Positions 1,652-61,538 of a stretch of DNA of 64,000 nucleotides are shown piece after piece. Where the stretch lies: the UHGV virus genome UHGV-0289908. The stretch is one strand, 5' to 3'. The position numbers were made by a program, and so were the translations under genes. Every line of letters starts with the position of its first letter. Position 1 is the first letter of the stretch. Below the pieces are notes generated by a model. That model searched no databases, was not told the origin of the DNA, and was given only the letters and a program-made list of their open reading frames with translations. The stretch comes from a virus.

Positions 1652-1766
1652 CGAAAACTTCGGCATAAATTTTTTTAAAAAAGACGATAAAACTGACATT
1701 TTACAGACATTTAGAGGTAGGGTTTAGCCCTATCTCTCACTATATTGACCAAACAGGAGGACTAAC

Positions 1767-2741: not shown

Positions 2742-3479
2742 ATGACTAAAGTGGACAAAGACGAGCTCACCTCTCTCGTTGAAGAAGGATTGACTCAAAA
2801 AGAGATAGCGGAACGACTCGGAGTTTCCCCCATGACAGTTTTAAGGACATGCAAGAAATTGGGATTAAAAACACAAGGAAACAAGAAAAAGATAAAGGAT
2901 TATACTGGGATTCGTTCGGGACGATTGGTCTATCTGCAACCAAGTGGAGTGACACAAGATAGAAGAACATTATGGAAGTGCCAATGCGACTGCGGGAATA
3001 TTGTTTACAAAACAGGGGCAGGGATTGGCTACCATCAATCATGCGGTGAATGTGTTGTTCCTCGAAACAGTCAACCTCTTTATAAAATATGGAGAGGAAT
3101 GCACGCAAGATGTAAATATAGCGGAGTAAAAAGCTACCATAGATATGGAGGGAGAGGAATAAAGGTTTGTTCAGAATGGGAGGATTACGAGACTTTCAAA
3201 ACATGGGCTCTAACAAACGGATATGAAGAAGGGTTAAGCATAGACCGAATTGACAATGGCAAAGGATACCAAGCAGATAACTGTCGTTGGGTGTCACAAA
3301 AACAACAAATGCGGAACACAGATAGCAATAGAAACATTACATACAATGACCAAACAAAATGTTTGATAGAATGGGCAGAAGTGAAAGGAATATCGCCAGA
3401 CACTTTGGCTAAAAGGTTGGATAAATATAATTGGAGCATTGAAAAAGCTCTCAATACTCCAGTAAGAGGAAAGAGGTAG
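2742..3479 (+). CDS. Freestanding HNH-type homing endonuclease with an N-terminal HTH
   Basis: 'YKIWRGMHARC...GGRGIKVCSEWE...GLSIDRIDNGKGYQADNCRWVSQKQQ' resembles the phage HNH family. Lies between nrdF and gmk. Confidence 0.55.
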   Translation: MTKVDKDELTSLVEEGLTQKEIAERLGVSPMTVLRTCKKLGLKTQGNKKKIKDYTGIRSGRLVYLQPSGVTQDRRTLWKCQCDCGNIVYKTGAGIGYHQSCGECVVPRNSQPLYKIWRGMHARCKYSGVKSYHRYGGRGIKVCSEWEDYETFKTWALTNGYEEGLSIDRIDNGKGYQADNCRWVSQKQQMRNTDSNRNITYNDQTKCLIEWAEVKGISPDTLAKRLDKYNWSIEKALNTPVRGKR

Positions 3480-3865: not shown

Positions 3866-3916
3866 CTAAAATATTATAAAATGAGTTGACAATGCTGTCG
3901 ATACATGATATTATAA
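3866..3916 (+). promoter_or_regulatory. Sigma-A-type promoter module (UP 'CTAAAATATTATAAAATG', TTGACA 3886-3891, 17-bp spacer, TGaTATTAT)
   Basis: Matches the reiterated consensus seen about 18 times in this window. Upstream of gmk. Confidence 0.6.
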
Positions 3917-6446: not shown

Positions 6447-6502
6447 TTCGCTAAAATATTATAAAATGTATTGACTATTGTGTCGAAGCATGATATCATT
6501 AG
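6447..6502 (+). promoter_or_regulatory. Promoter module, copy A of a perfect 56-bp direct repeat (TTGACT 6471-6476, TGaTATCAT 6491-6499)
   Basis: Identical to 8282..8337. Confidence 0.65.
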
Positions 6503-8281: not shown

Positions 8282-8337
8282 TTCGCTAAAATATTATAAA
8301 ATGTATTGACTATTGTGTCGAAGCATGATATCATTAG
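8282..8337 (+). promoter_or_regulatory. Promoter module, copy B of the perfect 56-bp direct repeat
   Basis: Identical to 6447..6502. Confidence 0.65.
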
Positions 8338-11723: not shown

Positions 11724-11768
11724 AATATTATAAAATATGTTGACAAATATTGTCGATAATGGTATAAT
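11720..11768 (+). promoter_or_regulatory. Promoter module (TTGACA 11740-11745, 17-bp spacer, TGgTATAAT). Overlaps the macro-gene stop.
   Basis: First 31 bp identical to the module at 27281. Confidence 0.6.
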
Positions 11769-12367: not shown

Positions 12368-12737
12368 GGAGGTTGATTATTTTGATATGGGGACTGATTG
12401 ATGGATTGATTAGTGCCTTTATCCTCTCGCTATTTGGATTCGATGATATTGTTGTCGGATGTCTATATGAGTGGTTTGGAGTAACGGTGTCGTCCAATAG
12501 TTACTATATGCTGTTTGCTATTTTAGGAGCATTATCAACATTGGACTAGGAAGAGACTTAATATATGAAGAGCGAGCAATTAAACGCATTGAGATTTTTA
12601 AATATCGACAAGGCTAAGATTGATATATTAGGAGGGCAGGATATGGACTTAAAAAACGTGAGGTATCAATCGAAAAACTGTTTGTATTTAAACAATAAAA
12701 TTAATATTTTATAGTGCTATTTAAAAGGAGGAATTAC

Positions 12738-14036
12738 ATGAAACAAGTTGCAACAATTATTAAACAATTACAAAATACAAGTGGGACAAACGACAAGATT
12801 GCCATTGTCAAAGCTAATGCAGACAATGAAATACTTAAGAAGGTTCTATATTATACATACAACCCACTTATGACTTATAAGATTACAGAGTCGGTATTTA
12901 AAGAATACAAAGCAGGTAAGCACAGAGATGGTGACGTATTTGCAATGTTAGACGAATTAGCCAATAGCAACATCAATGACCAACTACGTGAACAGGTTGT
13001 AGCCTTTGTTGAGGCACAGGATGAGGATATCCAATGGTTAATCAAAGGAATGTTATTCAAGGACTTGCGTATCAATATGGGAGTTAAGAATATCAATAAA
13101 GCTATTCCTAAGTTAATTCCTGCTTGGGAGGTTCAGCAAGGTCACCCTGTGGATAAGGTTAAGAAGTTCAAACCTAATGAATGGTATTGCCTTGCATTAA
13201 AGTTAAACGGTATCCGAAGCACGTTCTATGATGGAGGATTCCGTAGTCGTCAGAATCAACCAATGACAGGGTATCAACATATCGTTGATGATTTAACAGC
13301 TATGTGTAATCACTTTGGTCAAGACGTATTAAACTGGGTATTTGATGGAGAGCTAGTTCACAAGAACCGAGACTATGCAATCCTAGACAACGAGAACTTC
13401 CGCTTAACATGTTCGATTGTTAACTCAGACGCTTTAGAGAAGCCACAAATTGAGCTTGTTTTATTCGATATGCTACCCATTGCTGAATTCAATAAAGGAG
13501 AGAGTAAGTTGGGATACAAAATGCGTTTAGAACGTCTTAAACGTATCCAGAATGCCATCGACTCTTTAGGGTTAGAACACATTCGTATTGCCCCAGTATT
13601 CTATGAAGGTAATGGGGTAGACCAAGCCGTCATTGACCATTACTTGGACTGGACTACTGAAATGAAGCTAGAAGGATTAATGTTAATCCGAGACTTTAAA
13701 TATCAGCGTAAGCGACATAATGGCATCTTGAAGGTTAAGCGATTCCTATTTTCAGATGTTCGTATCATTGGATACGAAGAAGGAGAAGGGAAACATGCAG
13801 GCAAATTAGGGTCTTTCATTATCGACTTCAAAGGAACACCAGTAGGTGTCGGTAGCGGCTATACAGACGCAGAACGTGAAGAATTCTGGGCTAATAGAGA
13901 CTTCTATATTGGCAAGATTTTAGAGGTTAAATATAAAGAAGAGACAAAGAATAAAAAGGATGATAGCATTAGCTTACAATTCCCTACTTTTAGTCGCATG
14001 CGATTAGATAAGGATGAAGTAAGCTACGAATCATAG
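12738..14036 (+). CDS. ATP-dependent DNA ligase (or nucleotidyltransferase-family RNA ligase)
   Basis: Motif I 'LKLNGIR' (KxDG-like). OB-fold-like C-terminus. RBS 'AAAAGGAGGAATTACATG'. Replication neighbourhood. Confidence 0.55.
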   Translation: MKQVATIIKQLQNTSGTNDKIAIVKANADNEILKKVLYYTYNPLMTYKITESVFKEYKAGKHRDGDVFAMLDELANSNINDQLREQVVAFVEAQDEDIQWLIKGMLFKDLRINMGVKNINKAIPKLIPAWEVQQGHPVDKVKKFKPNEWYCLALKLNGIRSTFYDGGFRSRQNQPMTGYQHIVDDLTAMCNHFGQDVLNWVFDGELVHKNRDYAILDNENFRLTCSIVNSDALEKPQIELVLFDMLPIAEFNKGESKLGYKMRLERLKRIQNAIDSLGLEHIRIAPVFYEGNGVDQAVIDHYLDWTTEMKLEGLMLIRDFKYQRKRHNGILKVKRFLFSDVRIIGYEEGEGKHAGKLGSFIIDFKGTPVGVGSGYTDAEREEFWANRDFYIGKILEVKYKEETKNKKDDSISLQFPTFSRMRLDKDEVSYES

Positions 14037-14047
14037 GAGGAAACCGC

Positions 14048-14194
14048 ATGTTGGAGTTGATTAACTTTATTTCCATGATGGCAGTTCTTGTAGGGCTAGG
14101 GATGATTGCGTCCACAGACCGCATTGACGGGAGACATAGAGCAGGAATTGTTGTGTACTTTGTTGGTATGGCACTATTTTTACTAACAGCTTAA
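14048..14194 (+). CDS. Small membrane protein (about 48 aa)
   Basis: Hand-translated hydrophobic peptide. RBS 'GGAGGAAACCGCATG'. Confidence 0.3.
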   Translation: MLELINFISMMAVLVGLGMIASTDRIDGRHRAGIVVYFVGMALFLLTA

Positions 14195-14202
14195 ATATTC
14201 GT

Positions 14203-14251
14203 CAAAATATTATAAAATGTGTTGACAAGCAATTACAAAGTTTGATATAAT
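14203..14251 (+). promoter_or_regulatory. Promoter module (TTGACA 14222-14227, TGaTATAAT 14243-14251)
   Basis: Consensus. Confidence 0.6.
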
Positions 14252-16690: not shown

Positions 16691-16741
16691 TGTAAAAAAA
16701 TGTTAAAAAGGATTGACATGTCGAAATAGACATGATATAAT
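16690..16741 (+). promoter_or_regulatory. Promoter (A-rich upstream, TTGACA 16713-16718, 17-bp spacer, TGaTATAAT)
   Basis: Consensus hexamers. Lacks the exact ATATTATAAAAT element. Confidence 0.5.
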
Positions 16742-17537: not shown

Positions 17538-17587
17538 CTAAAATATTATAAAATGCTATTGACAATATCTTACAGATATGTTAATAT
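17538..17587 (+). promoter_or_regulatory. Promoter module (TTGACA 17559-17564, 17-bp spacer, TGtTAATAT)
   Basis: Consensus with a slightly degenerate -10. Confidence 0.5.
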
Positions 17588-17631
17588 ACAGGAGTCGAAT
17601 ACGACAGAAATTTGTCAAAGGAGAGATGAAC

Positions 17632-18321
17632 ATGGCAACACAAAAGAACAAACGCAAGTCTTGGACTGCAACAATCAAACGTTGGTTTGGGATGAAAGCA
17701 GAAGCAGCTAATGACGCAATGGACGGAATGGTGGATTTAGAAGTCCAATTAAAACGCAAGAAACGTGAATTATTAGAACGACGAGATGAAATCCGCAACG
17801 GAGATAACATGAGTCAAATCTTAGGTTTAAAAGCTCAGTTAGAGAACGACCTAATCGCAGAGCGTCGCAAGTTCGAACAGTCGAAGTACATTGAAACAAT
17901 TCGTCGCTTACGTGACACTGGTCAAACAGAACAGGCTAAACGATTATTAATCGAGAAGAACCAAAAAGAGCAAAAGATTGAAACTCTTGTTCAACAGTTG
18001 GCAGAAGCAACAAATGCAGAAACTGAAATCTTACGTCAGTTAGACATCTTAGACCGCAACATTGCTCAAGCTACGGCAGAGTTAGACGAGTTCCAACGAC
18101 GCAATCAAATGGCACAACAAACAGAAGCTATCTACGACGTATTAAACAGTGTTACTGACATCAACACAGGATATGACGCAGACGGAATTCATGAAGCTAT
18201 TGCAGAGCGTGAAAGAGCAGCGGCAGGACGACGCACGTTATATAATAATGCTAATGTTGCAAACAATGCTCGCTATGACGCAGAGATGTCTTCTCTTGAT
18301 GACGAATTAGCAAACTTATAA
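17632..18321 (+). CDS. Coiled-coil protein, function unknown
   Basis: Long heptad-like charged helices. RBS 'CAAAGGAGAGATGAACATG'. Confidence 0.4.
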   Translation: MATQKNKRKSWTATIKRWFGMKAEAANDAMDGMVDLEVQLKRKKRELLERRDEIRNGDNMSQILGLKAQLENDLIAERRKFEQSKYIETIRRLRDTGQTEQAKRLLIEKNQKEQKIETLVQQLAEATNAETEILRQLDILDRNIAQATAELDEFQRRNQMAQQTEAIYDVLNSVTDINTGYDADGIHEAIAERERAAAGRRTLYNNANVANNARYDAEMSSLDDELANL

Positions 18322-20364: not shown

Positions 20365-20585
20365 GTAAATAAAATCAGAAGTTAACAGACATTTAAGGAG
20401 TGGTAAAATGGATTTTAATAAGTGTCATATTGAACTACTTGTAAGAGCATTAGACCATTATAAGTGGTATCAAGTGATTTCAGATGAAGAAAAAGAAGAG
20501 TGTGTCAGAATAAAACGCATTCTTCAAAAGTTATATAAACAAATTGATGGCAAACAAAATTAGAATTTTAAAGGAGACGATATTA

Positions 20586-21287
20586 ATGGCTATTAACTTA
20601 ACTAAAAATCAAGGAATTAACTTAACAAAAGATGTTGAAGGGGTTGAAGAAGCATTAAAGACTATTAAATTAGGATGTGGATGGCAAGCGTCTGATTCGG
20701 GCTATGTAACTATTACACGAACAGTAACGAAAACTCGTCGCACTGGAGGATTCCTTGGATTTGGTGGAACGATTGAAACTTACGAAGAGCCAGCAACTGA
20801 GGAAGTGTATGTAGGAAACATTGATGTAGACGCTTCGGTATTTGCCTTCAAGAATGGAACATTAGTTGGAGAGTGTACATTCCGCAATCAAACAATGAAG
20901 AATCGAGTAGGTAAAACTGTTGCTAAATCAAGCGGAGATGACACAGTGGGGTCTCGTGGTAAGAACAAGAGCGACAATGAAACAGTTACCATTAACCTTG
21001 AGAATGCTGTTGGATTTGCAGATACATTATACTTAGCATTAAACATCTTCCAAGCGAAGAGCAAGGGTCAGCACTTCAACATGATTAATAATTCTTATGT
21101 GCGAGTGTATGATGACAAAGGTATTGAGTTGGCATACTTCAACTTAGCAGAAGACTATGACAAGAAAACAGGAATTGTGGTCGGTAAATTAGTTGAACGA
21201 AATGGGAAGTTTGAGTTTGTTGCATTAGGTGACGGAGTGATTGTTAGCGACTTACGTGACTTAGCTTCAAAATCAAAACGATACTAA
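20586..21287 (+). CDS. TerD-domain protein, second copy
   Basis: Starts 'MAINLTKNQGINLTK' like the first TerD. RBS 'AAAGGAGACGATATTAATG'. The ORF-track start at 20544 is probably too far upstream. Confidence 0.6.
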   Translation: MAINLTKNQGINLTKDVEGVEEALKTIKLGCGWQASDSGYVTITRTVTKTRRTGGFLGFGGTIETYEEPATEEVYVGNIDVDASVFAFKNGTLVGECTFRNQTMKNRVGKTVAKSSGDDTVGSRGKNKSDNETVTINLENAVGFADTLYLALNIFQAKSKGQHFNMINNSYVRVYDDKGIELAYFNLAEDYDKKTGIVVGKLVERNGKFEFVALGDGVIVSDLRDLASKSKRY

Positions 21288-21373
21288 TACATATGAGGGG
21301 ATGACCCCCTCAACCTACTAAATGAGATACTTAGAATAAATACTATACTTAGAACAAAGGAGCAACTATACTT

Positions 21374-23944
21374 ATGAAGAATATTAATGGATTAACAAAC
21401 GCAGAAGTGGAATCGCAACGCATGCTATTTGGAGATAATAAGATTGCAGAAGCAGAACCAAAGAAGTTTTGGACAGAATGGTTGGCAAACTTTGAAGACC
21501 CAATGTTAAAATTATTAGTGGGAATTACAGTGTTAATGGCGGTAATCGCTGCCTTTGGATTCACAGAATGGTTTGAAGTCATTGGTATCTTAATCTCTGT
21601 GACAATCGTAACACTTATTTCAACAAAGACTGCAATGGTTTCAGATGGAGAATACCGCAAGTTAAAAGAAGAGAACTCTCATGAGACTTGTAAGGTATGC
21701 CGTAATGGACAAATTGAAATCATTGACACTAACGACTTGGTGGTTGGAGACTTTGTTTTAGTTCAATCGGGAGAGAAGATTCATGCAGATGGATTCTTAT
21801 ATGATGGGAACATTAAGGTAGACAACTCAGCGTTAAACGGTGAGTCAGATGAAGTTAAAAAGATTCCAACAGACTTCTATGACTTTGCAAATGGTGAAAT
21901 GACAGACTCTCACATGATGTTACGTGGAGCTTTAGTTGCTGACGGGGAAGGTGTTATGAAAGTAGCCAAGGTTGGAGCAAACACTATGATGGGACGTATG
22001 GCAGAAGAGATGACAGAAGAAGAGGTTGACTCTCCATTAAAAGTTAAGTTAACACACTTAGCAGAGCAAATCTCTAAATTCGGTTATATCGGAGCAGTAG
22101 TTATTGGATTAGCTATCTTAGGTAACTCAATCTTAAGTAACGGGCTACAGTCTTGGTTGGCACAACCATTCGCATTAATGGCTAAAGACGTGTTAAATGC
22201 CTTATTAGTATCAGTAACAATCGTAGTTATGGCAGTACCAGAGGGATTACCTTTAATGATTGCAATTGTATTAATGCAAAACACTTCAAAGATGTTGCAA
22301 CACAATGTATTAGTGCGTAAGGCAGTAGGTATTGAAACAGCGGGGTCATTAAACATCTTATTCTCAGATAAAACAGGAACTATCACTAAAGGTCAGTTAG
22401 AAGTAGTAAACTTCATTGACAAGGACGGAAACCAGTTTGATTCAATCACTGGATTAGACGAAGGTATGCAGAAGTTAGTTGCCACATCATTAAAGATTAA
22501 CAACTCGGCTATGATTGTAGACGGTGAAATCACAGGTGGGAACATGACAGACCGCGCTTTATTACAATATGTTAAAGATATTGAGCATGAAGATTTAAAG
22601 GTAGTAAAAGTGGAAACATTCAACTCTGCTAAGAAGTTCATGGCAACTCAATGTGAGACAGCAATGGGTCGTACATTAACGCTATACAAAGGTGCAGTTG
22701 AACGAGTATTAGACAAATGTATCAATATTACAGATGAAGAACGCAACAAAATCAACACTATTGTTGACGAAATGGCTAACAATGCAATCCGTGTACTTGC
22801 TATCAGTTATGCTCATGGAGAGTTAGTAGCAGGTGAATTATCACCAGAGATGAGCTTATTAGGGGTAATTGGTATCCGTGACGATGTTCGTCCAGAAGCT
22901 AAAACAGCCATTGCAGAAGTACAAAATGCAGGTGTTCAAGTAGTCATGATTACTGGAGACCGCAAAGAAACAGCAGTAGCAATCGCAAAAGACGCAGGAT
23001 TAATTACCAAAGACACAGATGTGGTATTAACATCAAGTGAATTACAGGACTTATCAGATGAAGAAGTAAAAGCAATCATTCCAAACTTAAAGGTAGTTGC
23101 TCGTGCATTGCCAACAGACAAGTCACGTATGGTTCGTTTATCACAGGAGCTAGGACTTGTAGCAGGGATGACAGGTGACGGAACTAACGACAGTCCTGCC
23201 TTAAAACGAGCAGACGTAGGGTTTGCCATGGGGTCTGGAACAGATGTAGCGAAAGAAGCAGGAGACATCATCATCTTAGATGACAACTTCAAGTCAATCG
23301 CAGACTCGGTGTTATATGGTCGTACTATCTATAACAATATCTTAAAGTTTATCAAGTTCCAATTAACAATCAACGTAGTAGCAGTATTTATTTGTGCAGT
23401 GTGCCCATTCTTCGGTATCCAAGAGCCATTAAACATTATCCAGTTGCTAATCCTCAATTTAGTAATGGACAGCTTAGGGGCTATGGCATTAGGTGGAGAA
23501 CCTGCATTAAAAGAGTACATGAATGAGAAGCCAAAGTCTCGTACACAATCAATCGTAGATAAAGCTATGATGATTCAAGTAGGTGCTATGGGAGCATTCA
23601 TGGCAGTATTAAGTTTATTATTCTTATTTGTTCCTATGTTCAAAGACATGTTTGGTCAAGCACATTTAACAGGATACTTCGCACTATTCATGTTGATGTC
23701 TGTATTCAATGGATTCAATGTGCGTAGCATGGATTCAAATGTATTCAAGGGATTAGATGAAAACAAAACATTCGCTAAGGTTATGGTTGCTATCGTTGCC
23801 ATCTTAGTAGTGTTAACACTCATTGGAGGAGAATTCTTATCAGTAACCCCAATGAACTTAGTGCAATGGGTTGTGGTGTCAGTAATGGCAGTAACAGTAA
23901 TTCCATTCGGAAGTTTCTTAAAAGGATTAATTTCGTCAAAATAA
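21374..23944 (+). CDS. P-type cation-transporting ATPase (type IIA, Ca2+-ATPase-like)
   Basis: 'DKTGTIT' phosphorylation site, 'MITGDRKETA', 'GDGTNDSPALKRADVGFAMG', an N-terminal cation-ATPase-N segment and about 8-10 TM helices. Confidence 0.85.
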   Translation: MKNINGLTNAEVESQRMLFGDNKIAEAEPKKFWTEWLANFEDPMLKLLVGITVLMAVIAAFGFTEWFEVIGILISVTIVTLISTKTAMVSDGEYRKLKEENSHETCKVCRNGQIEIIDTNDLVVGDFVLVQSGEKIHADGFLYDGNIKVDNSALNGESDEVKKIPTDFYDFANGEMTDSHMMLRGALVADGEGVMKVAKVGANTMMGRMAEEMTEEEVDSPLKVKLTHLAEQISKFGYIGAVVIGLAILGNSILSNGLQSWLAQPFALMAKDVLNALLVSVTIVVMAVPEGLPLMIAIVLMQNTSKMLQHNVLVRKAVGIETAGSLNILFSDKTGTITKGQLEVVNFIDKDGNQFDSITGLDEGMQKLVATSLKINNSAMIVDGEITGGNMTDRALLQYVKDIEHEDLKVVKVETFNSAKKFMATQCETAMGRTLTLYKGAVERVLDKCINITDEERNKINTIVDEMANNAIRVLAISYAHGELVAGELSPEMSLLGVIGIRDDVRPEAKTAIAEVQNAGVQVVMITGDRKETAVAIAKDAGLITKDTDVVLTSSELQDLSDEEVKAIIPNLKVVARALPTDKSRMVRLSQELGLVAGMTGDGTNDSPALKRADVGFAMGSGTDVAKEAGDIIILDDNFKSIADSVLYGRTIYNNILKFIKFQLTINVVAVFICAVCPFFGIQEPLNIIQLLILNLVMDSLGAMALGGEPALKEYMNEKPKSRTQSIVDKAMMIQVGAMGAFMAVLSLLFLFVPMFKDMFGQAHLTGYFALFMLMSVFNGFNVRSMDSNVFKGLDENKTFAKVMVAIVAILVVLTLIGGEFLSVTPMNLVQWVVVSVMAVTVIPFGSFLKGLISSK

Positions 23945-23985
23945 TATAAAATAGATTGACAACATATGACAATCTATGATATAGT
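23941..23985 (+). promoter_or_regulatory. Promoter module (TTGACA 23956-23961, 18-bp spacer, TGaTATAGT)
   Basis: Consensus. Confidence 0.55.
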
Positions 23986-24097
23986 TTAAATGCACCTAGG
24001 AAATAGTTTTTGACAGTCAGTACCTACCATGGTAGGTATTGGCAATCAAGAACTGATTCAAAAAGAGAGAGTGAGTTCTTAATACTTGTTAGGAGAG

Positions 24098-25543
24098 ATG
24101 AACATGAATTATAACCACAGAAGTTTTATTTGGGATTGTGACGCTTACAAGCTAGGACATATGTGCCAGTACCCAAGCGACACAGAATATGTTTACTCAG
24201 TATTACAATTACGCAGTGACCGATACTTCACTGAGACACCGATTGTTGGGTTACAATACCTAATTAAAGAGTACTTAATGCAACCAATTTTAAAAGGTGA
24301 TGTCGAAGGGCTAATTGCAGAAGCAAAAGCAATGGGAATCTATCACCCAGATACTGAAACAAAGTTGATGGCTTTAGTAGACTTAGGATACTTACCATTA
24401 GAGATTAAGGCATTACCAGAGGGTAGTGTTGTGGGAATGCCAAATGCAGTGTGTACAATTCAAAATACCGTTGCAGGATTCCACTGGGTAGTAGGGTTCG
24501 TAGAAACATTATTGTTAAAATGGTGGTCAGCCTTAGCAACAGGAGCTTGTAGCTTAAAGTATCGTCGCATTGTTGATAAGTACTTTGCAGAAACATCAGA
24601 CAACGACTTCTTACGACCATTCGCTGTTCATGATTTTGGTTCACGTGGGGCAATGACTCCAGAGGGAGCAGCTTTTACAGGAATGGCTCACGCATTAAAC
24701 TTCGATGGTTCTGACACAATCGTATCAGCTCCATTAATTCGCAAGTTCTACAATGCAGAAGGAATGGTAATCTGCTCAGTGCCTGCTAGCGAACACTCTG
24801 TAATGTGTTCATTTGGACGAGAAGATGAAATTAAAGCATTTGAGAACATGTTAGATATTTACCCTACAGGGATTGTTTCAATCGTTTCAGATACATATAA
24901 TTGGTACAATGTTATGGATAACATGACGCTACAACTAAAAGACCGCATTATGGCTCGTGATGGTAAAGTGGTATTTCGACCAGACAGTGGTAATCCATAT
25001 CACATCATTTGTGGCGAGTACACTGATAAGACATTGAGAAAGTATTGTGAAGAAAGCTGTCAAACTCATGGCGGAATCCATATGTTAGATAAAATATTTG
25101 GTCACACAGTCAACTCAAAAGGATACAAAGTATTGGATTCACATGTAGGACTAATCTACGGGGATGGAATGTATTTAGAACGTTTCGAGAAGACGTTAGA
25201 AACATTAAAAGACCTAGGATATAGTGCGGAAAACTTAGTAATTGGGGTAGGTGGAATCTTACGCAATCACACTCGAGATACTTTAGGAGCGGCATTCAAA
25301 GCGACTTGCGTGTGTCGTGATGGCAAATGGATTCCTATTATGAAAGACCCTATCACTGACCAAGGGAAGAAATCATATCAAGGCTTTGTATCCGTCATCA
25401 AAGAAGATGGACAATATAAAACGGTCGAAGGTGGACATCCACAAGACTTATTACAAACAGTGTTTAAGGATGGACAATTAGTAAAAGACTTCACTTGGCA
25501 GGAAGTTAAAGACCGATACAATTCAGAGTTAGGAGACCGATAA
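24098..25543 (+). CDS. nadV: Nicotinamide phosphoribosyltransferase family protein (NAMPT/NadV-like; candidate Namat of the phage NAD+ reconstitution pathway 1)
   Basis: Blocks 'LPLEIKALPEG', 'HDFGSRG', 'NFDGSDT', 'PASEHSV', 'VSDTYN', 'RPDSGNP', 'NSKGYKVL', 'IYGDG', 'DLLQTVFKDGQL' align one-for-one with NAMPT signature blocks. Confidence 0.85.
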   Translation: MNMNYNHRSFIWDCDAYKLGHMCQYPSDTEYVYSVLQLRSDRYFTETPIVGLQYLIKEYLMQPILKGDVEGLIAEAKAMGIYHPDTETKLMALVDLGYLPLEIKALPEGSVVGMPNAVCTIQNTVAGFHWVVGFVETLLLKWWSALATGACSLKYRRIVDKYFAETSDNDFLRPFAVHDFGSRGAMTPEGAAFTGMAHALNFDGSDTIVSAPLIRKFYNAEGMVICSVPASEHSVMCSFGREDEIKAFENMLDIYPTGIVSIVSDTYNWYNVMDNMTLQLKDRIMARDGKVVFRPDSGNPYHIICGEYTDKTLRKYCEESCQTHGGIHMLDKIFGHTVNSKGYKVLDSHVGLIYGDGMYLERFEKTLETLKDLGYSAENLVIGVGGILRNHTRDTLGAAFKATCVCRDGKWIPIMKDPITDQGKKSYQGFVSVIKEDGQYKTVEGGHPQDLLQTVFKDGQLVKDFTWQEVKDRYNSELGDR

Positions 25544-28474: not shown

Positions 28475-28518
28475 TCTAAATCATACTTAGGGCAGTGCCA
28501 ATATACATAACATGGTGG

Positions 28519-28541
28519 AGAGAGATTTCTTCTCTCTCCCA
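28519..28541 (+). other. Perfect 9-bp polypurine/polypyrimidine hairpin GGAGAGAGA-tttct-TCTCTCTCC in the 5' UTR of the HNH gene
   Basis: Seen in sequence. Confidence 0.4.
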
Positions 28542-28557
28542 ATAATGGAGGACGACA

Positions 28558-29196
28558 ATGAGCAAAACAGGAAAGACCTGTTGTGTGTCAGAATGTGACA
28601 AAAAGCACTATGCAAACGGCTATTGTGAAAAACATTATTGGCAAGTCAGAAGACATGGAAAAGTGGTCTTATGTACACGTAGCAAATTTGACAATAATGA
28701 AATCATCTTAAATGGAGATGAAACAGCAACCATTATAACCTATGATAATCATGGGGTTGCCAATGGTAAAACAATAATTTCTGATTCCTGTGTAGAACAG
28801 GTCAGAGACAAAAAGATTGGGAAACATACTTCGAAAGATTATTATTACATCCTAATTGACGGCAACCGCTATGCACTTCACCGCTATCTAATGAATGCTC
28901 ACCTTTCTAGGCATAAAGTGGTGGTTGACCACATTAACCGAAACCCGAGTGATAACCGACTATCAAATTTAAGAATAACAAACCATTCTGGCAACAACTG
29001 TAACAGAGGTTTAATGTCAAATAATTCACTAGGTATTAAAAATATTGGATTAACCAAGTACGGAACATATCGAGTGCAGATTTCTTTGAAAGAGAAGAAG
29101 CACAGTAAAACATTTAAGACACTTGAAGAAGCAATTAAATGGAGAAATGAAACTTTGGTTGCTCTACAAGGAGATTTTGCAAACATACAAGATTAA
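28558..29196 (+). CDS. HNH homing endonuclease with an AP2-like domain (paralogue of 14931..15572)
   Basis: 'CCVSECDKKHYANGYCEKH' Zn knuckle, 'VVDHINRNPSDNRLSNLRITNHSGN', 'GTYRVQISLKEKKHSKTFKTLEEAIKWR'. Confidence 0.7.
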   Translation: MSKTGKTCCVSECDKKHYANGYCEKHYWQVRRHGKVVLCTRSKFDNNEIILNGDETATIITYDNHGVANGKTIISDSCVEQVRDKKIGKHTSKDYYYILIDGNRYALHRYLMNAHLSRHKVVVDHINRNPSDNRLSNLRITNHSGNNCNRGLMSNNSLGIKNIGLTKYGTYRVQISLKEKKHSKTFKTLEEAIKWRNETLVALQGDFANIQD

Positions 29197-30243: not shown

Positions 30244-30300
30244 AATTCCCGAATAATTCGGACATAAATTTTCGTAAAAAGACGATAAAATCCGTATTTT

Positions 30301-30330
30301 ATAGCAATTAGAGGGGGAACTTCCCCCTCT
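30301..30330 (+). terminator. Rho-independent terminator AGAGGGGGAA-ct-TTCCCCCTCT followed by CTTTTTTT
   Basis: 10-bp GC-rich stem and a T-run. Confidence 0.8.
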
Positions 30331-30358
30331 CTTTTTTTAAAGAAAATGAGGTGAACAT

Positions 30359-30856
30359 ATGGCTCGGAAAGTTAAATGTCCAGTTTGTGACAAGATGAAC
30401 CCAAAAGACGAAACCGTCAAATTGGGGAATCGCTACTACTGCCCTGCATGTGCAGAGGAGCGAAATCACCAACAACTATCAGATTGGGACATACTGTTCC
30501 AATACATCTGTTGGCTGTATCGTATCCCCAACTTAACTGGGCAAATGTATAAACAGTTAAAGGATTATCGAGACAACTGGGAATATACAGACATTGGAAT
30601 GTATCACACCCTAAGATATTACCATGAGATTCTTGGGAAGCCTGTCAAAGATGACGCAGGATTGGGGATTATCCCATATTACTACGATAGAGCAAAGGCA
30701 TTTATATACAAACAGTATTCACTTAAACAACAGTATGACCAATATAACCAAGAAGAGAAAGAGGTTTATGTGCAACGCACTCAGCCAGAACGATGGAAGA
30801 AACGAGAACCGTTAAATTTTGACACAGTAGATTGGGGAGATACTAATGAAGATTAA
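30359..30856 (+). CDS. Zinc-ribbon protein (N-terminal CPVC...CPAC)
   Basis: 'CPVCDKMNPKDETVKLGNRYYCPACAEE'. Confidence 0.45.
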   Translation: MARKVKCPVCDKMNPKDETVKLGNRYYCPACAEERNHQQLSDWDILFQYICWLYRIPNLTGQMYKQLKDYRDNWEYTDIGMYHTLRYYHEILGKPVKDDAGLGIIPYYYDRAKAFIYKQYSLKQQYDQYNQEEKEVYVQRTQPERWKKREPLNFDTVDWGDTNED

Positions 30857-32888: not shown

Positions 32889-33662
32889 ATGACAAATAGA
32901 AGTAAAAAACATGAATACATGAACCAGACCTTCACTACAAATGAGGGGTACAATATCAAGATTGTAGATTATGTTAATAGTCGCAATGTGACAGTTGAAT
33001 TTGACAATGGATATAGAACCAATGCTCAACTTGGCTCAATTTTAAAGGGGAGAGTCTCATTCCCCTTTCACCCCTCTGTATATGGGGTAGGTTGCTTGGG
33101 GGTTGGAGAGTATCTGGCAAGTCATAAAAGAAAACACACAAAGACCTACAAAGTATGGCATAGCATGATGGCACGCTGTTATAGCAACTCTTGCTTGGCG
33201 AGCAGGAGCACTTATATGGATTGCTCTGTATACGAGGGATGGCACAATTTCCAAAACTTTGCCAAATGGTATGAAGACAACTATTATGAGATAGAGGGGG
33301 AGCAAATGCACTTGGACAAGGATATTCTTGTAAAGGGCAATAAGGTTTATTCCCCCGACACCTGTGTATTTGTTCCAGAAACCATTAACGGACTGTTTGT
33401 CAAAAGCAATGCCATTAGAGGGGCATTGCCAATAGGTGTCAGCTATCATAAAAAAGACAGGATGTATTACTCTCGATGTAATAATCAGCTATTGGGGAAG
33501 ACTATCACCATTGGGACTTTTACCACCCCCGAGGGTGCGTTCGAAGCCTATAAAGAATACAAAGAGAAGTATATTAAAGAAGTGGCAGAGAAATATAGGG
33601 GCAATATTCCTTCTCATCTGTATGACGCACTAATCCAGTATGAAGTCGAAGTTACTGATTAA
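32889..33662 (+). CDS. Freestanding HNH-family homing endonuclease (paralogue of 2742..3479)
   Basis: 'YKVWHSMMARC...YEGWHNFQNF..W' conserved with the 2742 protein. Lies between the helicase and the primase. Confidence 0.5.
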   Translation: MTNRSKKHEYMNQTFTTNEGYNIKIVDYVNSRNVTVEFDNGYRTNAQLGSILKGRVSFPFHPSVYGVGCLGVGEYLASHKRKHTKTYKVWHSMMARCYSNSCLASRSTYMDCSVYEGWHNFQNFAKWYEDNYYEIEGEQMHLDKDILVKGNKVYSPDTCVFVPETINGLFVKSNAIRGALPIGVSYHKKDRMYYSRCNNQLLGKTITIGTFTTPEGAFEAYKEYKEKYIKEVAEKYRGNIPSHLYDALIQYEVEVTD

Positions 33663-36693: not shown

Positions 36694-37317
36694 ATGACAC
36701 CACAGGAAGAATACGAAAAGATATTAAAGATACGTAACAAGGAAATAAGTTTTGACGAAGCAGTCAAGAGTTACAAAGGAATGCTAGTTAAAAAGTCAAA
36801 ATCCTACCATATAGCAGGGCAAGATAAAGACGACCTTTATTCTTGCTCAATGTACTCCTTATACAAGGCGGTCAACACCTTTGATGGTAGCGGTAGTTTT
36901 ATAAAATACTTGGGATATATTATCGACAACGATTTTAAAAGCATGATTCGAAAGTCTTGGGGAGAAAGAAATGGTGATATTCACTATACTAATTGTGCTC
37001 GTCTAAACAAGCCTGTTGCAGCACATGTTGATGGGAACTTTGTTGAAATGGGGGAGCTGCTCCCAACCAATCTTTCATTAGATTGTTTGGATTACAACCT
37101 GCTAATTCCAATTGTTAAAGAAGCGATGATTGCCCTACCCCCAGAGGTTCAGAAATTACTCCAACTACATCTTTTTGAAGAATGCAATCAACAAGAAATT
37201 GCTAAAGAGTTTGGAGTGTTGCAGAGTACAATTTCAAGACGCATTCAACGGTCTCTTCTCTTACTACAAAAAGAGCTAGAGAAGCTAGACATCACCAACC
37301 CATATCCAAAACAATAA
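36694..37317 (+). CDS. Second phage sigma-70-family sigma factor
   Basis: Region-4 HTH 'NQQEIAKEFGVLQSTISRRIQRSLLLLQKEL'. Region-2-like 'DDLYSCSMYSLYKAVNTFD'. Confidence 0.6.
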   Translation: MTPQEEYEKILKIRNKEISFDEAVKSYKGMLVKKSKSYHIAGQDKDDLYSCSMYSLYKAVNTFDGSGSFIKYLGYIIDNDFKSMIRKSWGERNGDIHYTNCARLNKPVAAHVDGNFVEMGELLPTNLSLDCLDYNLLIPIVKEAMIALPPEVQKLLQLHLFEECNQQEIAKEFGVLQSTISRRIQRSLLLLQKELEKLDITNPYPKQ

Positions 37318-44810: not shown

Positions 44811-45980
44811 ATGGCATTAGTTATTAAACGAGATGGAAATTTAACAGGGTTTAACAAGAATAAGATTAAGGTGGCAATTTTAAAAGCAATGGAGTATGGT
44901 AGCGGCATTGTCAATAAAGAGATTGCCGAAACTGTTGCTCAAGAAGCTGAAAATACATACAATGTTGATGGAAAGATGACAGTAAGCATTGCAGAGATTG
45001 AAGCATTCGTGTTTCAACAATTAGTCCAACACGGACATGAATTAACCGCACGTGCCTATGAAGGATACCGTTCTGTTCAAGCCTTCAAACGTGAGACAAA
45101 CACAACGGATGAATCAATCTTGGGGCTAATTCGTGGAACAAATGAAGAAGCTATCAATGAGAACTCAAACAAAAATGCTTACATTGCTTCTACTCAACGA
45201 GACCTTGTAGCAGGAGAGGTTTCAAAAGACCTTGCACGTAGACACTTAATTCCTGCTCATATTGTGCAAGCTCATGATGAAGGTGTCATTCACTATCACG
45301 ACCTTGATTATGCGTTACAACAAATTCCAAACTGTAACTTAGTTAACTTAAAAGATATGTTGGATAATGGCACTGTGATTAATGGAAAACGTGTTGACTC
45401 TCCAAATTCATTCTTAACTGCTTGTACTATTGCTACTCAAATTATGGCACAGGTTGCAAGTGGACAATTCGGAGGACAAACAAGCTCATTATCGCACTTA
45501 GCTCCTTACGTTCGTAAATCAAGAGAGCGTTACTATGACTTATTAAAGGACACAATCAACTCTATTGACGAGTTAAATAACACAGTTGATAAGTTAGTTA
45601 AGAAGGAGATTGCTTCTGGAGTACAGACAATCCAATATCAAATACAGACGCTCGCAACATCTAATGGTCAGTCACCTTTCGTTTCTTTATTCATGTATTT
45701 AAACGAAGATGAAGAGTATATCGAAGAGATGGCTTTAATCATTGAAGAAGTATTAAAGCAACGCATCTTAGGGGTGAAGAATGAGCAAGGAGTATACATT
45801 AGTCCTGCATTCCCTAAATTGCTTTACGTTCTTGATGAGAACAATACATACGAAGGTAGCGAATACTACTACTTAACTAAATTAGCAGTTGAATGTGTGT
45901 CTAAACGCATTGTTCCAGACTTCATCAGTGCTAAAAAGATGAAAGAACATTATGAAGGACAAGTGTTCCCTTGTATGGGT
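44811..45980 (+). CDS. nrdD: Anaerobic ribonucleotide reductase NrdD, exon 1 (ATP-cone plus N-terminal catalytic region)
   Basis: 'MALVIKRDGNLTGFNKNKIKVAILKA' ATP-cone. The ORF runs into intron sequence after '...VFPCMG'. Confidence 0.8.
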
Positions 45981-46948
45981 AAGTAAAACTGCCCATGTAA
46001 AACTCGGTGAACCTAGAAATCTAGGGTGTATAATCAGCGATTAGTAGCATTAGGAAATGAGTGCTAATGATTATGCTAACAGGGGAAGTCGCATAGATTA
46101 TCCTGTGCTAAGTCTCAACATGCAGTATAGGAGGAGATGTCATGTATACTGTATATAAAGCCACCAATGTAAATAATCATAAAATCTATATTGGGGCAAC
46201 TAACAATTTAAAACGAAGAATAAATGAACACAAAAACCACGCACGCAAAGATAAGAGTAGATTCCACGGTGCAATTTTAAGGTATGGAATTGAAAGTTTT
46301 GTTTTTGAAATACTTTTACAATGTGAAAACAAAGAAGAAATGTTTGAAAAAGAAAAAGAGATGATTGCCCTTTTTGACTCTACGAACCCAGAGATTGGCT
46401 ATAACGAGACCGAGGGAGGTAGAGGAGGTCAAACTCACGACATACACGGAGAGAGAAATCCTATGCACGGCAAACTTTACACCGAAGAGGAGAGGAAAGC
46501 TCTATCGGACAAATTAAAAGGTCGAAAGATAACTGCCGAACATAGGCACAAAATAAGCTCAAGTCTCAAAGGAAAAGAAAAGAGTGAGCAACACAGGTTG
46601 AATTTATCAAAGGCTCTTAAAGGGAATCTTCCATCCAACTCCCGCAAAATCTCTGTGATACATACGATAACTGGAGAAATATTAACCTTTAACTCAGAAG
46701 CGGAAATGGAACGAGCGTTAAAATGTGGTCGTGCAACGGTTAAAAGTGGGCGAATTACCAAGAATGGATATAAATTGTATGTTGAGAAAAGTCAAGAGAC
46801 TATCGAAAGCATAGCATAAGAGAAAAACTTATGTGAAGAAGCGAGTAGAGTACATTTGAGGTGGAATTCCTCATTTGGAAGTGCCGAGGTCTTGTGTGTT
46901 GGTAATAGACATGCAAGACATGATATAGTCCAACCTCGCAAGAGGTTG
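45981..46948 (+). mobile_element. Group I self-splicing intron in nrdD carrying a GIY-YIG homing endonuclease
   Basis: The exon-1 end 'ATGGGT' pairs with intron 'GCCCAT' at 45991-45996 (P1 helix with the U.G wobble at the splice site). CAACCTC-GCAA-GAGGTTG GNRA hairpin ends at G46948 directly before exon 2. Joining gives '...PCMG|CRSFLSPW...'. Confidence 0.75.
46142..46819 (+). CDS. GIY-YIG homing endonuclease (intron-encoded)
   Basis: 'MYTVYKATNVNNHKIYIGATNNLKRRINEHKN' GIY-YIG motif. C-terminal repeated 'KLKG / SLKG / ALKG' NUMOD-like DNA-binding repeats. Confidence 0.8.
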   Translation: MYTVYKATNVNNHKIYIGATNNLKRRINEHKNHARKDKSRFHGAILRYGIESFVFEILLQCENKEEMFEKEKEMIALFDSTNPEIGYNETEGGRGGQTHDIHGERNPMHGKLYTEEERKALSDKLKGRKITAEHRHKISSSLKGKEKSEQHRLNLSKALKGNLPSNSRKISVIHTITGEILTFNSEAEMERALKCGRATVKSGRITKNGYKLYVEKSQETIESIA

Positions 46949-47908
46949 TGTAGAAGTTTTTTATCTCCATGGAAAGATGAGAACGGAAACTACAAGTGGT
47001 ATGGTCGTCAGAATTTAGGAGTGGTCACTTTAAACCTACCAGATGTAGCATTAACTGCAAAAGGTGACTTAGACATGTTCTGGAACATTCTTGACCGCAG
47101 ATTAGAATTATGTAAAGAAGCATTAATGGTGCGAGTAGACTTATTGCGTGGAACACCATCTGATATTAGTCCAATCCACTGGCAATATGGAGCTGTAGCA
47201 CGACTTAAAAAAGGTGAAACTATTGACTCTATTATTGATAGTGGAGCTTGTTCTATTAGTTTAGGATACATTGGTCTTTGCGAAACTGTACGTGCTTTAA
47301 TTGGACAGTCACATACTACTCCAGAGGGTGAGAAGTTGGCAGTTGCAATTATGAAACGATTACGAGAATCAACAGACCGATGGAAACAAGAAACTGGCTT
47401 AGGATTTGGGCTTTACGGGACACCATCTGAATCTTTAACTTACCGTTTTGCTACTAAACTTCAACAACGTCATGGTATCATTGATGGAATCACTGACAAG
47501 TTATACTTAACAAACAGCTACCATGTTCACGTTTGCGAAGAGATTGACGCTTTCTCTAAAATGGCATTCGAGTCACAATTCCAAAAGATTTCATCTGGTG
47601 GAACTATTTCATATATTGAAGTGCCTAACATGAAGCACAATTTAGAAGCTCTACACCGAACAGTAGAATTCATGTATGAGAACATGCAATACTGTGAAAT
47701 CAATACTAAATCAGACTATTGCCAAGAGTGTGGATACGATGGAGAGATTTTAATTGATGACGAACTTGAATGGTATTGTCCAAACTGCGGTAACAGAGAC
47801 AAGAGCAAGATGAACGTTGTCCGCAGGACTTGTGGCTATTTAGGGGAGAACTTCTTCAACAAAGGTCGCACTCAAGAAATCAAAGAGCGAGTGTTACACT
47901 TAAACTAA
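46949..47908 (+). CDS. nrdD: NrdD exon 2 (glycyl-radical domain and C-terminal Zn ribbon)
   Basis: 'RRTCGYLGE' glycyl-radical motif. 'CQECGYDGE...CPNCGN' Zn ribbon. The in-frame upstream part of ORF 46856 is intron. Confidence 0.8.
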   Translation, partial: CRSFLSPWKDENGNYKWYGRQNLGVVTLNLPDVALTAKGDLDMFWNILDRRLELCKEALMVRVDLLRGTPSDISPIHWQYGAVARLKKGETIDSIIDSGACSISLGYIGLCETVRALIGQSHTTPEGEKLAVAIMKRLRESTDRWKQETGLGFGLYGTPSESLTYRFATKLQQRHGIIDGITDKLYLTNSYHVHVCEEIDAFSKMAFESQFQKISSGGTISYIEVPNMKHNLEALHRTVEFMYENMQYCEINTKSDYCQECGYDGEILIDDELEWYCPNCGNRDKSKMNVVRRTCGYLGENFFNKGRTQEIKERVLHLN

Positions 47909-48290: not shown

Positions 48291-48341
48291 TTTACAACTG
48301 GGGCTATGTGCCCCTTTTGCCATATCTATAGGAGGAATACT

Positions 48342-48845
48342 ATGAATTATCAGTTAGTGAAGTACAACAATATCGGCAATGGAATCGGCATCAGAACAAG
48401 TTTGTTCGTGACAGGATGTTCACATGGTTGTAAAGGATGTTTCAATCAGTCTATTGCTAACAAAAACGCAGGAGAGCCATTCACAGATGACGTTAAAACA
48501 GCAATTTTACAGTCATTAGAGCCTTCTTATATTGCAGGGTTATCTTTATTAGGAGGTGAGCCCATGGTGTCATACAACGCTCCAGAGTTAGCCAAACTAT
48601 GCCGTGAAGTGCGAGAGCTACATCCCACAAAGAATATATGGGTATATAGTGGCTTTACCTATGAGCAGATTATTGCAGACCCAATCAAACTAGAGTTACT
48701 GGAACAGTGCGATGTTCTAGTTGATGGGAAGTTTGAACAAAACCTATACTCTCCTCTGCTACGATTTAGAGGGAGTAGCAATCAGAGAATCATTGACATA
48801 AAGAAATCCCTAGAATCTGGTGCTGTGACACTATTCTTGGAATAA
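48342..48845 (+). CDS. nrdG: Anaerobic RNR activating enzyme NrdG (radical SAM)
   Basis: 'TGCSHGCKGCFN' C-x3-C-x2-C cluster. About 165 aa. RBS 'TATAGGAGGAATACTATG'. Confidence 0.8.
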   Translation: MNYQLVKYNNIGNGIGIRTSLFVTGCSHGCKGCFNQSIANKNAGEPFTDDVKTAILQSLEPSYIAGLSLLGGEPMVSYNAPELAKLCREVRELHPTKNIWVYSGFTYEQIIADPIKLELLEQCDVLVDGKFEQNLYSPLLRFRGSSNQRIIDIKKSLESGAVTLFLE

Positions 48846-48849
48846 TTGT

Positions 48850-48898
48850 TAAAATATTATAAAACACTGTTGACTTTATTGTCGAACGGTGATATAAT
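48850..48898 (+). promoter_or_regulatory. Promoter module (TTGACT 48870-48875, 17-bp spacer, TGaTATAAT)
   Basis: Consensus. Confidence 0.6.
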
Positions 48899-61464: not shown

Positions 61465-61538
61465 TGTATCACTTCCTTTTTAGCATAATATAAAAGAGGG
61501 TAATTACACCCTCTTGCAATAAAACTTTGATTTTACTG

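Follow-up and report, generated by a model that had tools for sequence, protein, structure and literature searches.

A candidate terminator/attenuator cassette repeated between genes of an SPbeta-like gut phage

The intrinsic terminators and intra-operon attenuators of Firmicutes and of their phages are among the closest counterparts of the element described here. Like them, it has a GC-rich hairpin on the sense strand right after a stop codon, followed in two of its copies (c2 and c5, see below) by a U-tract. It differs from them in that one copy (c1) has no U-tract, and its termination activity is a prediction. The nutL and nutR sites of phage lambda, which combine boxA with a boxB hairpin, are antitermination sites. 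They too are conserved and non-coding, exist in two copies and place a small hairpin ahead of a terminator that has to be passed. On the contrary, the loops of the AU palindrome (H2) of our element are not conserved, its copies lie kilobases from a promoter and abut the terminator, and a third copy is found in a late operon.

In SPbeta (YorH ~29% identity), the yorG-yorH spacer contains AAGAGGAGAGA-TTAT-TCTCTCCTCCTT, annotated as a stem_loop (NC_001884, 101995-102029), in the same place as c2; the copies in the window add 45-60 nt upstream (H1, an A/T tract and H2) that are absent in SPbeta. The T4-type phages harbor numerous mobile regulatory cassettes, the PeSL (promoter-early stem-loop), which consist of an early promoter and a stem-loop (PMC2839356, PMC4122927). 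Our element is also a short, repeated, intergenic stem-loop cassette that occupies several spacers, shows indels between close relatives and may plausibly have spread or recombined, but it exists in only 2-3 copies, and no promoter can be recognised in c1 and c2. The closer analogue of PeSL in this phage is the set of 14 sigma-A modules discussed below, some of which are followed by hairpins. Last, SPBRE is the operator of the SPbeta repressor MrpR, which binds it upstream of yorE (PMC10516654). The likeness lies in A/T-rich (A)TAAAA repeats ~10-11 bp apart and in the presence of an MrpR-like gene in the same phage; the difference is that the SPBRE-like 16-mers of the window are nearly invariant and always just upstream of a sigma-A -35 element, which is not the case of c1 and c2, where there is no promoter.

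We analysed a window of 64 kb (that is, the whole stretch of 64,000 nt) from a genome of ~154 kb, together with ~8 kb upstream of it and ~350 kb of relatives. The gene order (YorF, HNH, YorG of the AAA_24/Sak4-like type, YorH, the DnaB-like YorI, the RecJ-like YorK, a sigma factor, and the Pol III alpha subunit YorL) and the match to the YorH family indicate an SPbeta-like phage. Identical genes are present on 152-155-kb contigs of human-gut metagenomes, NrdF is 73% identical to the NrdF of Turicibacter, which points to a Turicibacter-like Firmicute as the probable host, and there is no DNA-level match in the cultured-phage collection. The genes are on the + strand up to ~50.7 kb, and then on the minus strand (late, tail-type genes).

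Anatomy and copies of the element

The copies are referred to as c1, c2 and c5, and their parts, from 5' to 3' in c1 and c2, as the H1 hairpin, the A/T tract, the AU palindrome H2 and the GC hairpin H3.

c1, 1652-1766, + strand: the entire 115-nt spacer between a thioredoxin-like gene and nrdF
H1 of c1, 1652-1662, + strand: CGAA-AAC-TTCG, directly 3' of the stop codon
A/T tract of c1, 1664-1687, + strand: CATAAATTTTTTTAAAAAAGACGA, common to c2
H2 of c1, 1688-1703, + strand: AU palindrome TAAAA-N6-TTTTA, a marginal RNA hairpin (~ -1 kcal/mol)
H3 of c1, 1713-1737, + strand: GC hairpin AGAGGTAGGG-TTTA-GCCCTATCTCT, -16 kcal/mol, with no U-tract
c2, 30244-30358, + strand: the entire 115-nt spacer between the yorG-like (AAA_24) and yorH-like genes
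5' block of c2, 30244-30278, + strand: H1 CCGAA-TAA-TTCGG (30249-30261) and CATAAATTTTCGTAAA, with TAAAA repeats at its edges; missing in the relatives L015-L017
H2 of c2, 30286-30301, + strand: AU palindrome TAAAATCCGTATTTTA
H3 of c2, 30310-30338, + strand: 9-bp GC hairpin (30310-30330) and U7 (30332-30338)
c5, 61465-61538, minus strand: third, partial copy, with H2 (61517-61538), H3 (61494-61515) and then a U-rich tail, flanked by a 59-aa ORF and a 1150-aa late ORF
H2-only site, 12696-12711, + strand: TAAAATTAATATTTTA, just 5' of the RBS that serves the gene at 12739, with no H3

An earlier, sequence-only reading of this DNA had described two related elements, upstream of nrdF and of the gene at 30359, and both are found where it placed them. 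A blastn search of the whole window with c1 as query aligns c2, a spacer of the same size, at 74% identity over 85 nt (3 gaps, E 7.8e-10). The genes that follow are nrdF (PF00268) and a member of the YorH family (PF26927), respectively, and both spacers are non-coding, with stops in every frame. The shared pattern that had been quoted is correct as written; its core, GACGATAAAA-N5-ATTTTAYAG, matches c1 and c2 exactly, and if as many as 3 mismatches are allowed the window contains 9 matches, versus 0.2 expected. That the element is present twice is true of the full 85 nt, but its 3' half (AU palindrome and GC hairpin) has a third copy on the minus strand, c5.

H1 is a 4-5-bp hairpin that lies directly 3' of the stop codon. 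The A/T tract has the form CATAAATTTT...AAAAAGACGA in both copies, with AAAAAGACGA at its end. H3 follows a short spacer (YAG.CA.TT) and is a purine-first GC hairpin, AGAGG...CCTCT, of ~ -16 kcal/mol; on the sense transcript the values range from -12.8 to -16.3 kcal/mol for c1, c2 and c5, and from -12 to -16.6 kcal/mol if all copies and orthologs are considered. The hairpin that had been proposed at 1713-1738 is indeed there (1713-1737). It is followed by CACUAUAUU, which is not a U-tract, and it is not listed by the terminator scan. The second hairpin had been placed ~9 nt too far left, at 30301-30322 instead of 30310-30330; the U-tract attributed to it exists. This H3 of c2 is the highest-ranked terminator-like site between 20 and 40 kb and, judging by its sequence, H3 and U7 make a canonical intrinsic terminator.

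In c5, the module that follows the stop codon is CAGTAAAATCAAAGTTTTATTG-CA-AGAGGGTGTAATTACCCTCTT-TTATATTATG, which corresponds to H2, H3 and the U-rich tail (UUUUAUAUUAU). It is the first-ranked terminator-like site of the minus strand between 44 and 64 kb. It sits in the late tail operon, while c1 and c2 sit in early or replication operons.

The search for further copies that had been proposed along with the first description gave no additional full 85-nt copy, neither in the 64-kb window nor in the ~350 kb of relatives, and the count of the 5' motif in the window equals the chance expectation. Within the window, a covariance model of H2 and H3 detects c1, c2 and c5 only, with E values of 1e-10 to 1e-13; the match ranked after them has an E value of 0.04 and no H3. 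In the relatives, the same model returns the orthologs of c1, c2 and c5 and a single weak H2-only match, L026:17587 (with a duplicate in L027). An exact scan of IMG/VR with the core pattern gave 3 matches and 0 copies of the element: two are at gene starts, where the pattern spans the RBS and the start codon, and the last one (L008) has H2 alone, in a spacer that runs from a stop codon to the following RBS. Seven matches were obtained in 185,579 species genomes; they are taxonomically scattered, and we judged them to be due to chance from the hosts alone.

H2 also occurs alone just upstream of an RBS, at 12696-12711 and at L026:17592-17613; the former site is possibly a relative of H2 that has no H3. 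In L026, a relative with 83% NrdF identity, the stretch 17587-17653 contains a perfect 9-bp AU hairpin, CGATAAAAG-ACGA-CTTTTATCG, with a GACGA flank as in c1 and c2, immediately 5' of the RBS of a gene for a small membrane protein; the GC hairpin is absent. In the window, the palindrome TAAAA-N4-6-TTTTA occurs at 16 sites (including 12696, 19814, 20149, 37315, 55249, 56946, 57345, 58708, 60622, 62395 and 62833), versus ~1.5 expected from a first-order Markov model, with a 6-nt spacer at 15 of the 16. Half of the sites (8/16) are intergenic, intergenic DNA being 9% of the window. The coding ones are all in frame as K-x-x-[IV]-L, several of them in paralogous late genes, and codon usage thus contributes to the over-representation.

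A look-alike of the c1 core was found inside nrdG (48306-48845), at 48480-48521 (77% over 43 nt, E 8e-4). It is a coding stretch, GACGTTAAAACAGCAATTTTACAGTCATTAGAG, read in the frame D-V-K-T-A-I-L-Q, and AAA and TTA codons favour the match. It could reflect chance or a shared origin, and we left it out of the count of copies.

Relatives and the layers of the element

Searches of the viral and genome collections for YorH-related loci gave none, while a metagenome scan gave 2 loci. In the relatives L015-L017 (YorH 98% identical), the yorG-yorH spacer is 78 nt long: its first 35 nt, which correspond to H1 and most of the A/T tract, are missing, and AAGACGA-H2-H3-U7 is retained, between flanking genes that are 94-97% identical. 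The long form of c2 also exists in L003-L005 and in L014, where an extra gene sits between the terminator and yorH. The 35-nt length polymorphism and this extra gene are the indel features observed at c2. The sequences of long c2 and c1 differ by ~25%, while the genes around the two length variants of c2 are 94-97% identical, so the short form is most simply regarded as a recent deletion. TAAAA repeats flank the missing block. We considered that it might be a MITE or an insertion and rejected this, since there are no terminal inverted repeats and the repeats at the edges fit a slippage deletion better. The absence of the 5' block in L015-L017 shows that it is dispensable in nature.

Further away, the c2 position contains only H2, H3 and the U-tract, from the stop codon on, in L013 (YorH 73%) and L019 (70%), and H3 alone in L018 (84%). 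A hairpin is therefore found at the yorG-yorH position in the relatives with 98%, 84%, 73% and 70% YorH identity, and in SPbeta.

At the other position, c1 is kept in the relatives whose NrdF is 94% identical, with few changes: several are in the loop of H2, one is a bulged C in H3, and an A->G change in H1 preserves the pair as G.U. It is missing in L026, L029 and L011 (NrdF 83%, 76% and 68%), though nrdF is retained. The spot between thioredoxin and nrdF is occupied by a small ORF and an unrelated hairpin in the 83% and 76% relatives, and by a hairpin only in the 68% relative, so that a hairpin 5' of nrdF also exists in these three, with unrelated sequences. As for a small ORF or pseudogene at c1 itself, this was rejected: there are stops in all frames, and the ORFs of the relatives (43 and 82 aa) appear unrelated.

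In the orthologs of c5 (78-97% identity), H2 is unchanged and the inner stem of H3 is swapped in a compensatory manner, from GGGT/ACCC to CCTA/TAGG. The c5 spacer begins with 28 nt that are the same (28/28) in lineages whose flanks are 62-86% identical.

The pairing was examined with a covariation test on a model-fitted alignment of 13 distinct sequences. The proportion of paired cells is 85.5%, versus 77.5% in shuffles, and the covariation score of the whole H2 and H3 is 0.20, versus 0.11 in shuffles (0/500) and 0.06-0.14 when the partners are slid. In H3 (helix 2), three of the seven stem pairs have changes on both sides. In H2, on the contrary, the five central pairs are invariant and the changes are confined to the two flanking pairs (A-U, G-C or G.U at one, U-A or U.G at the other); the TAAAA and TTTTA arms are the same in 11/11 distinct sequences, while the loops vary among copies (CTGACA, TCCGTA, TCAAAG, GTGTGA). 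RNAalifold independently recovers the core of H3 and finds no covariation outside it. The H3 hairpin is a genuine structure. As for H2, its sequence forms a conserved palindrome, and its folding as RNA is only putative: we rejected a stable RNA hairpin, since RNAalifold does not recover it and its free-RNA folding energy in c1 and c2 is only -0.1 to -2 kcal/mol, which is predicted to be too weak to matter.

The comparison shows layers of different ages. H3 is an old one, of which only the position and the pairing are conserved. The combination of H2 and H3 is specific to this gut clade, where it occupies at least three spacers, and the block made of H1 and the A/T tract belongs to one sub-lineage, in two spacers, and can be lost.

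Transcription context, proposed function and alternatives

This phage has 14 near-identical sigma-A modules, all on the + strand, which consist of (C)GCTAAAATATTATAAAAY followed by TTGACA-N17/18-TATAAT and head early operons; a module precedes nrdE, at a site just beyond the window. As the first description had stated, c1 and c2 do not match this module: neither contains one, and the best hexamers that inspection could find for a sigma-A-type promoter agree at 3/6 and 3/6 positions, so this candidate was rejected. Two other candidates were discarded as well: an ECF-type AAC...CGT, of which c1 has only the -35-like part and c2 only the -10-like part, and a T4-late-like CATAAAT or an antisense extended -10, which are inconsistent among copies or orthologs. 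After c1 there is no sigma-A module before 3862, and after c2 none before 36595, over 2-6 kb, which implies that nrdF onward and yorH-yorK would need transcription through the elements.

The promoter modules carry a near-invariant 16-mer, TAAAATATTATAAAAY, made of two TAAAAT repeats 10 bp apart and situated 3-5 nt upstream of the consensus sigma-A promoter; such modules are found on the + strand at 3867, 5125, 6452, 8287, 9331, 10561, 11721, 14203, 17539, 23937, 26398, 27281, 36613, 41451, 44350 and 48850. Perfect copies number 12, and 16 sites are within 2 mismatches; every one of these is a + strand site at a promoter module. At 3 mismatches 4 more matches appear, away from the modules and in one case on the minus strand, and none is in c1 or c2. 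The 16-mer is similar to the sequence upstream of SPbeta yorE, an MrpR-like gene lies just upstream of the window (L001:2263-3468), and TAAAATATTATAAAAY is probably the analogue, in this phage, of the SPBRE/MrpR operator. Many sigma-A modules also have TGTCGAA or TGTCGAT, an inverted copy of the -35, between the -35 and the -10 (for example at 3895-3901, 6481-6487, 8316-8322, 11751-11757, 16718-16724 and 48881-48887). This motif matches the Spo0A-box consensus and, together with the ATTATA of the 16-mer, it makes an interleaved promoter-like site on the minus strand, TCGACA-N17/18-TATAAT.

We propose that the three copies (c1, c2 and c5, the last one shorter) are paralogs, and that they represent an intercistronic terminator/attenuator cassette located in 3'-UTRs, with H3 as its working part; we give this reading a probability of about 0.55. 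Of the three functions that had been suggested for the element (promoter class, terminator/attenuator unit, small RNA motif), the second fits best, c2 being the top-ranked site and the position being conserved as far as SPbeta, while the promoter class read by a phage sigma factor is not supported. On the sense transcript, H3 would form a stable stem-loop. Where it is followed by a U-tract, in c2 and c5, it would act as an intrinsic terminator and stop a fraction of the host RNA polymerase molecules; where it is not, in c1, it is more likely to be a pause site, an attenuator or a hairpin that protects the mRNA end. nrdF and the replication genes yorH to yorK would then depend on read-through for their expression, and within long operons the cassette would determine how strongly upstream genes are expressed relative to downstream ones. 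The presence of the module in early or replication operons and in a late one fits an RNA element that is neutral with respect to timing. One intergenic cassette may have been copied to another spacer by recombination and then have diverged moderately: the similarity of H1, the A/T tract and H2 is best explained by common descent, and no separate function is needed.

Two points speak against this proposal: H3 of c1, having no U-tract, is not a canonical terminator, and a strong terminator right upstream of essential replication genes demands that read-through be explained. Besides, the invariant arms of H2 and the identity of 28 nt in c5 hint at a sequence-specific recognition that plain descent does not explain. 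If our main reading is correct, it shows how an SPbeta-like gut phage punctuates long operons with hairpin terminators or attenuators, how such cassettes reach new spacers by copying and are shortened by small deletions, and it should help annotate the operons of this group. The cassette is most likely a fairly ordinary one, and not a new class of promoter. Regarding c5, the late genes of SPbeta form one operon, which is read by YonO from a single start (PMC5467207). One may speculate, by analogy, that a hairpin inside the late operon of this phage stops the host polymerase selectively.

The hint of recognition leads to a reading which we consider doubtful, namely that H2 and its GACGA flank are the site of a phage-encoded factor that gates the passage of H3, either an antiterminator loaded onto an RNA hairpin in the manner of lambda nut/boxB, or a DNA repressor (MrpR-like, recombinase-derived) acting as a roadblock in lysogeny. 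The invariance of the arms in all copies in spite of variable loops would be expected of such a site, and so would the 28/28 identity of the H2 region in the orthologs of c5; this local identity could nevertheless come from mosaic recombination, and the loops of boxB, contrary to those of H2, do not differ between copies. The excess of palindromes (16 versus 1.5 expected, 8 of them in the intergenic 9%) goes in the same direction, but codon usage inflates it. On the RNA side, the G.U pairs at the flanks of H2 fit the sense strand, and essential genes behind a strong terminator call for regulated read-through, but the antiterminator itself is hypothetical. On the DNA side, AAAAGACGATAAAAT has two (A)TAAAA repeats ~10-11 bp apart, like the SPBRE-like operator, and the MrpR-like gene adjoins the window; however, neither c1 nor c2 comes within 3 mismatches of the operator 16-mer, and the MrpR peaks of SPbeta are all at promoters (PMC10516654). 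If true, this reading would mean that nrdF, the replication helicase block and the tail genes are switched at internal checkpoints instead of promoters, which would be a new regulatory layer for SPbeta-like phages. To our knowledge, what is so far understood of regulation in the SPbeta family takes place at promoters only (MrpR/SPBRE, the arbitrium system, YonO). Stable RNAs are an unlikely explanation: the copies would either give small 3'UTR-derived species that end at H3, or be processing sites, as in the intercistronic regions of T7 and SP82, where a 3' hairpin stabilises the upstream mRNA. Each copy is indeed structured, close to a stop codon and ended by a stable hairpin, and the same operons contain other intercistronic hairpins with no U-tract (for example in the spacers 28475-28557 and 21288-21373). 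The sub-threshold Rfam matches at c1 and c2 are all to terminator-ended sRNAs, but they are driven by the terminator, and no Rfam family reaches the gathering score in the whole window. Moreover, stems of 9-11 bp are short for RNase III and covariation is restricted to H3.

The idea that the elements are decayed copies of the sigma-A/operator module, or coding remnants, with no present function beyond the hairpin, is quite improbable. It draws on the similarity of c2 to the module at 14192-14235 (74% over 46 nt, E 0.002), on that of the c1 core to nrdG, in the same D-x-K-T-x-I-L-Q frame, and on the small ORFs (43 and 82 aa) that fill the thioredoxin-nrdF spacer in relatives; but no remnant of a -35 or -10 is present, stops occur in all frames, the ORFs of the relatives do not look like c1 by eye, and the nrdG match is short and favoured by AAA/TTA codon usage. 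Even less probable, in our opinion, is a promoter function, in which a phage sigma factor or a YonO-like polymerase would read the elements as a promoter class. The absence of the sigma-A module from elements whose downstream genes have no promoter of their own would be accounted for in this way, and the AGAGG arm, with a T-run ~17 nt later, superficially resembles the middle-promoter consensus of SPO1 (AGGAGA-N17-TTTNTTT). A sigma gene is also available, at 36694-37317, but it is the only clear one in the window, while two had been announced: the HTH protein at 2742-3479 has only sub-threshold matches to sigma region 4. No relative of the phage sigma was found by tblastn in cultured phages, so there is no promoter consensus to borrow. 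Inspection reveals no consistent -35/-10 pair, be it of sigma-A or ECF type, and only two full copies exist in the window and in ~350 kb of relatives. The downstream genes are kept in L015-L017, which have lost the 5' block, and in more distant relatives, which have no c1. The U7 terminator of c2 falls within the first ~50 nt of any transcript begun in the element, between the supposed promoter and its gene, so that such a promoter would abort its own transcript. Finally, the shared sub-module is found in early operons and in the late tail operon alike, and does not mark one temporal class.

Other genes of the phage

Two genes look like free-standing homing-endonuclease insertions, an HNH endonuclease gene (28558-29196) and an AP2-domain gene (32889-33662). 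Both are missing in L015, where YorF is directly followed by YorG, and YorI by the next conserved gene. The nrdD gene, which encodes the anaerobic ribonucleotide reductase, is interrupted by a GIY-YIG/NUMOD3 homing-endonuclease gene (46142-46819), with its N part at 44811-45986 and its C part at 46856-47908; the arrangement is intron-like, and no Rfam intron is detected at the gathering score.

The stretch 20544-25543 encodes a TerD-like protein, a P-type cation ATPase (21374-23944) and a nicotinamide phosphoribosyltransferase (24086-25543). P-type ATPases are unusual auxiliary genes in phages. Between 6657 and 8271 there are five tandem paralogous ORFs of ~100 aa each, with near-identical RBS contexts and a spacing of ~322-325 nt (repeat families D11 and D12). 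On the minus strand, between 56256 and 63972, late ORFs of 587, 1150 and 713 aa share repeats of 46-131 nt with 60-75% identity (families D5-D10); these ORFs are probably paralogous tail-fibre or receptor-binding modules, and relatives have genes with BppU_N and YomF_N domains at this locus.

Among the relatives, L019 (2892-5103; YorH 70%) and L018 (2501-4800; YorH 84%) have their DnaB-like helicase gene in two ORFs with a gap of ~250 nt between them, and the Pol III alpha gene of L019 (8772-12902) contains intein (Hint) domains.
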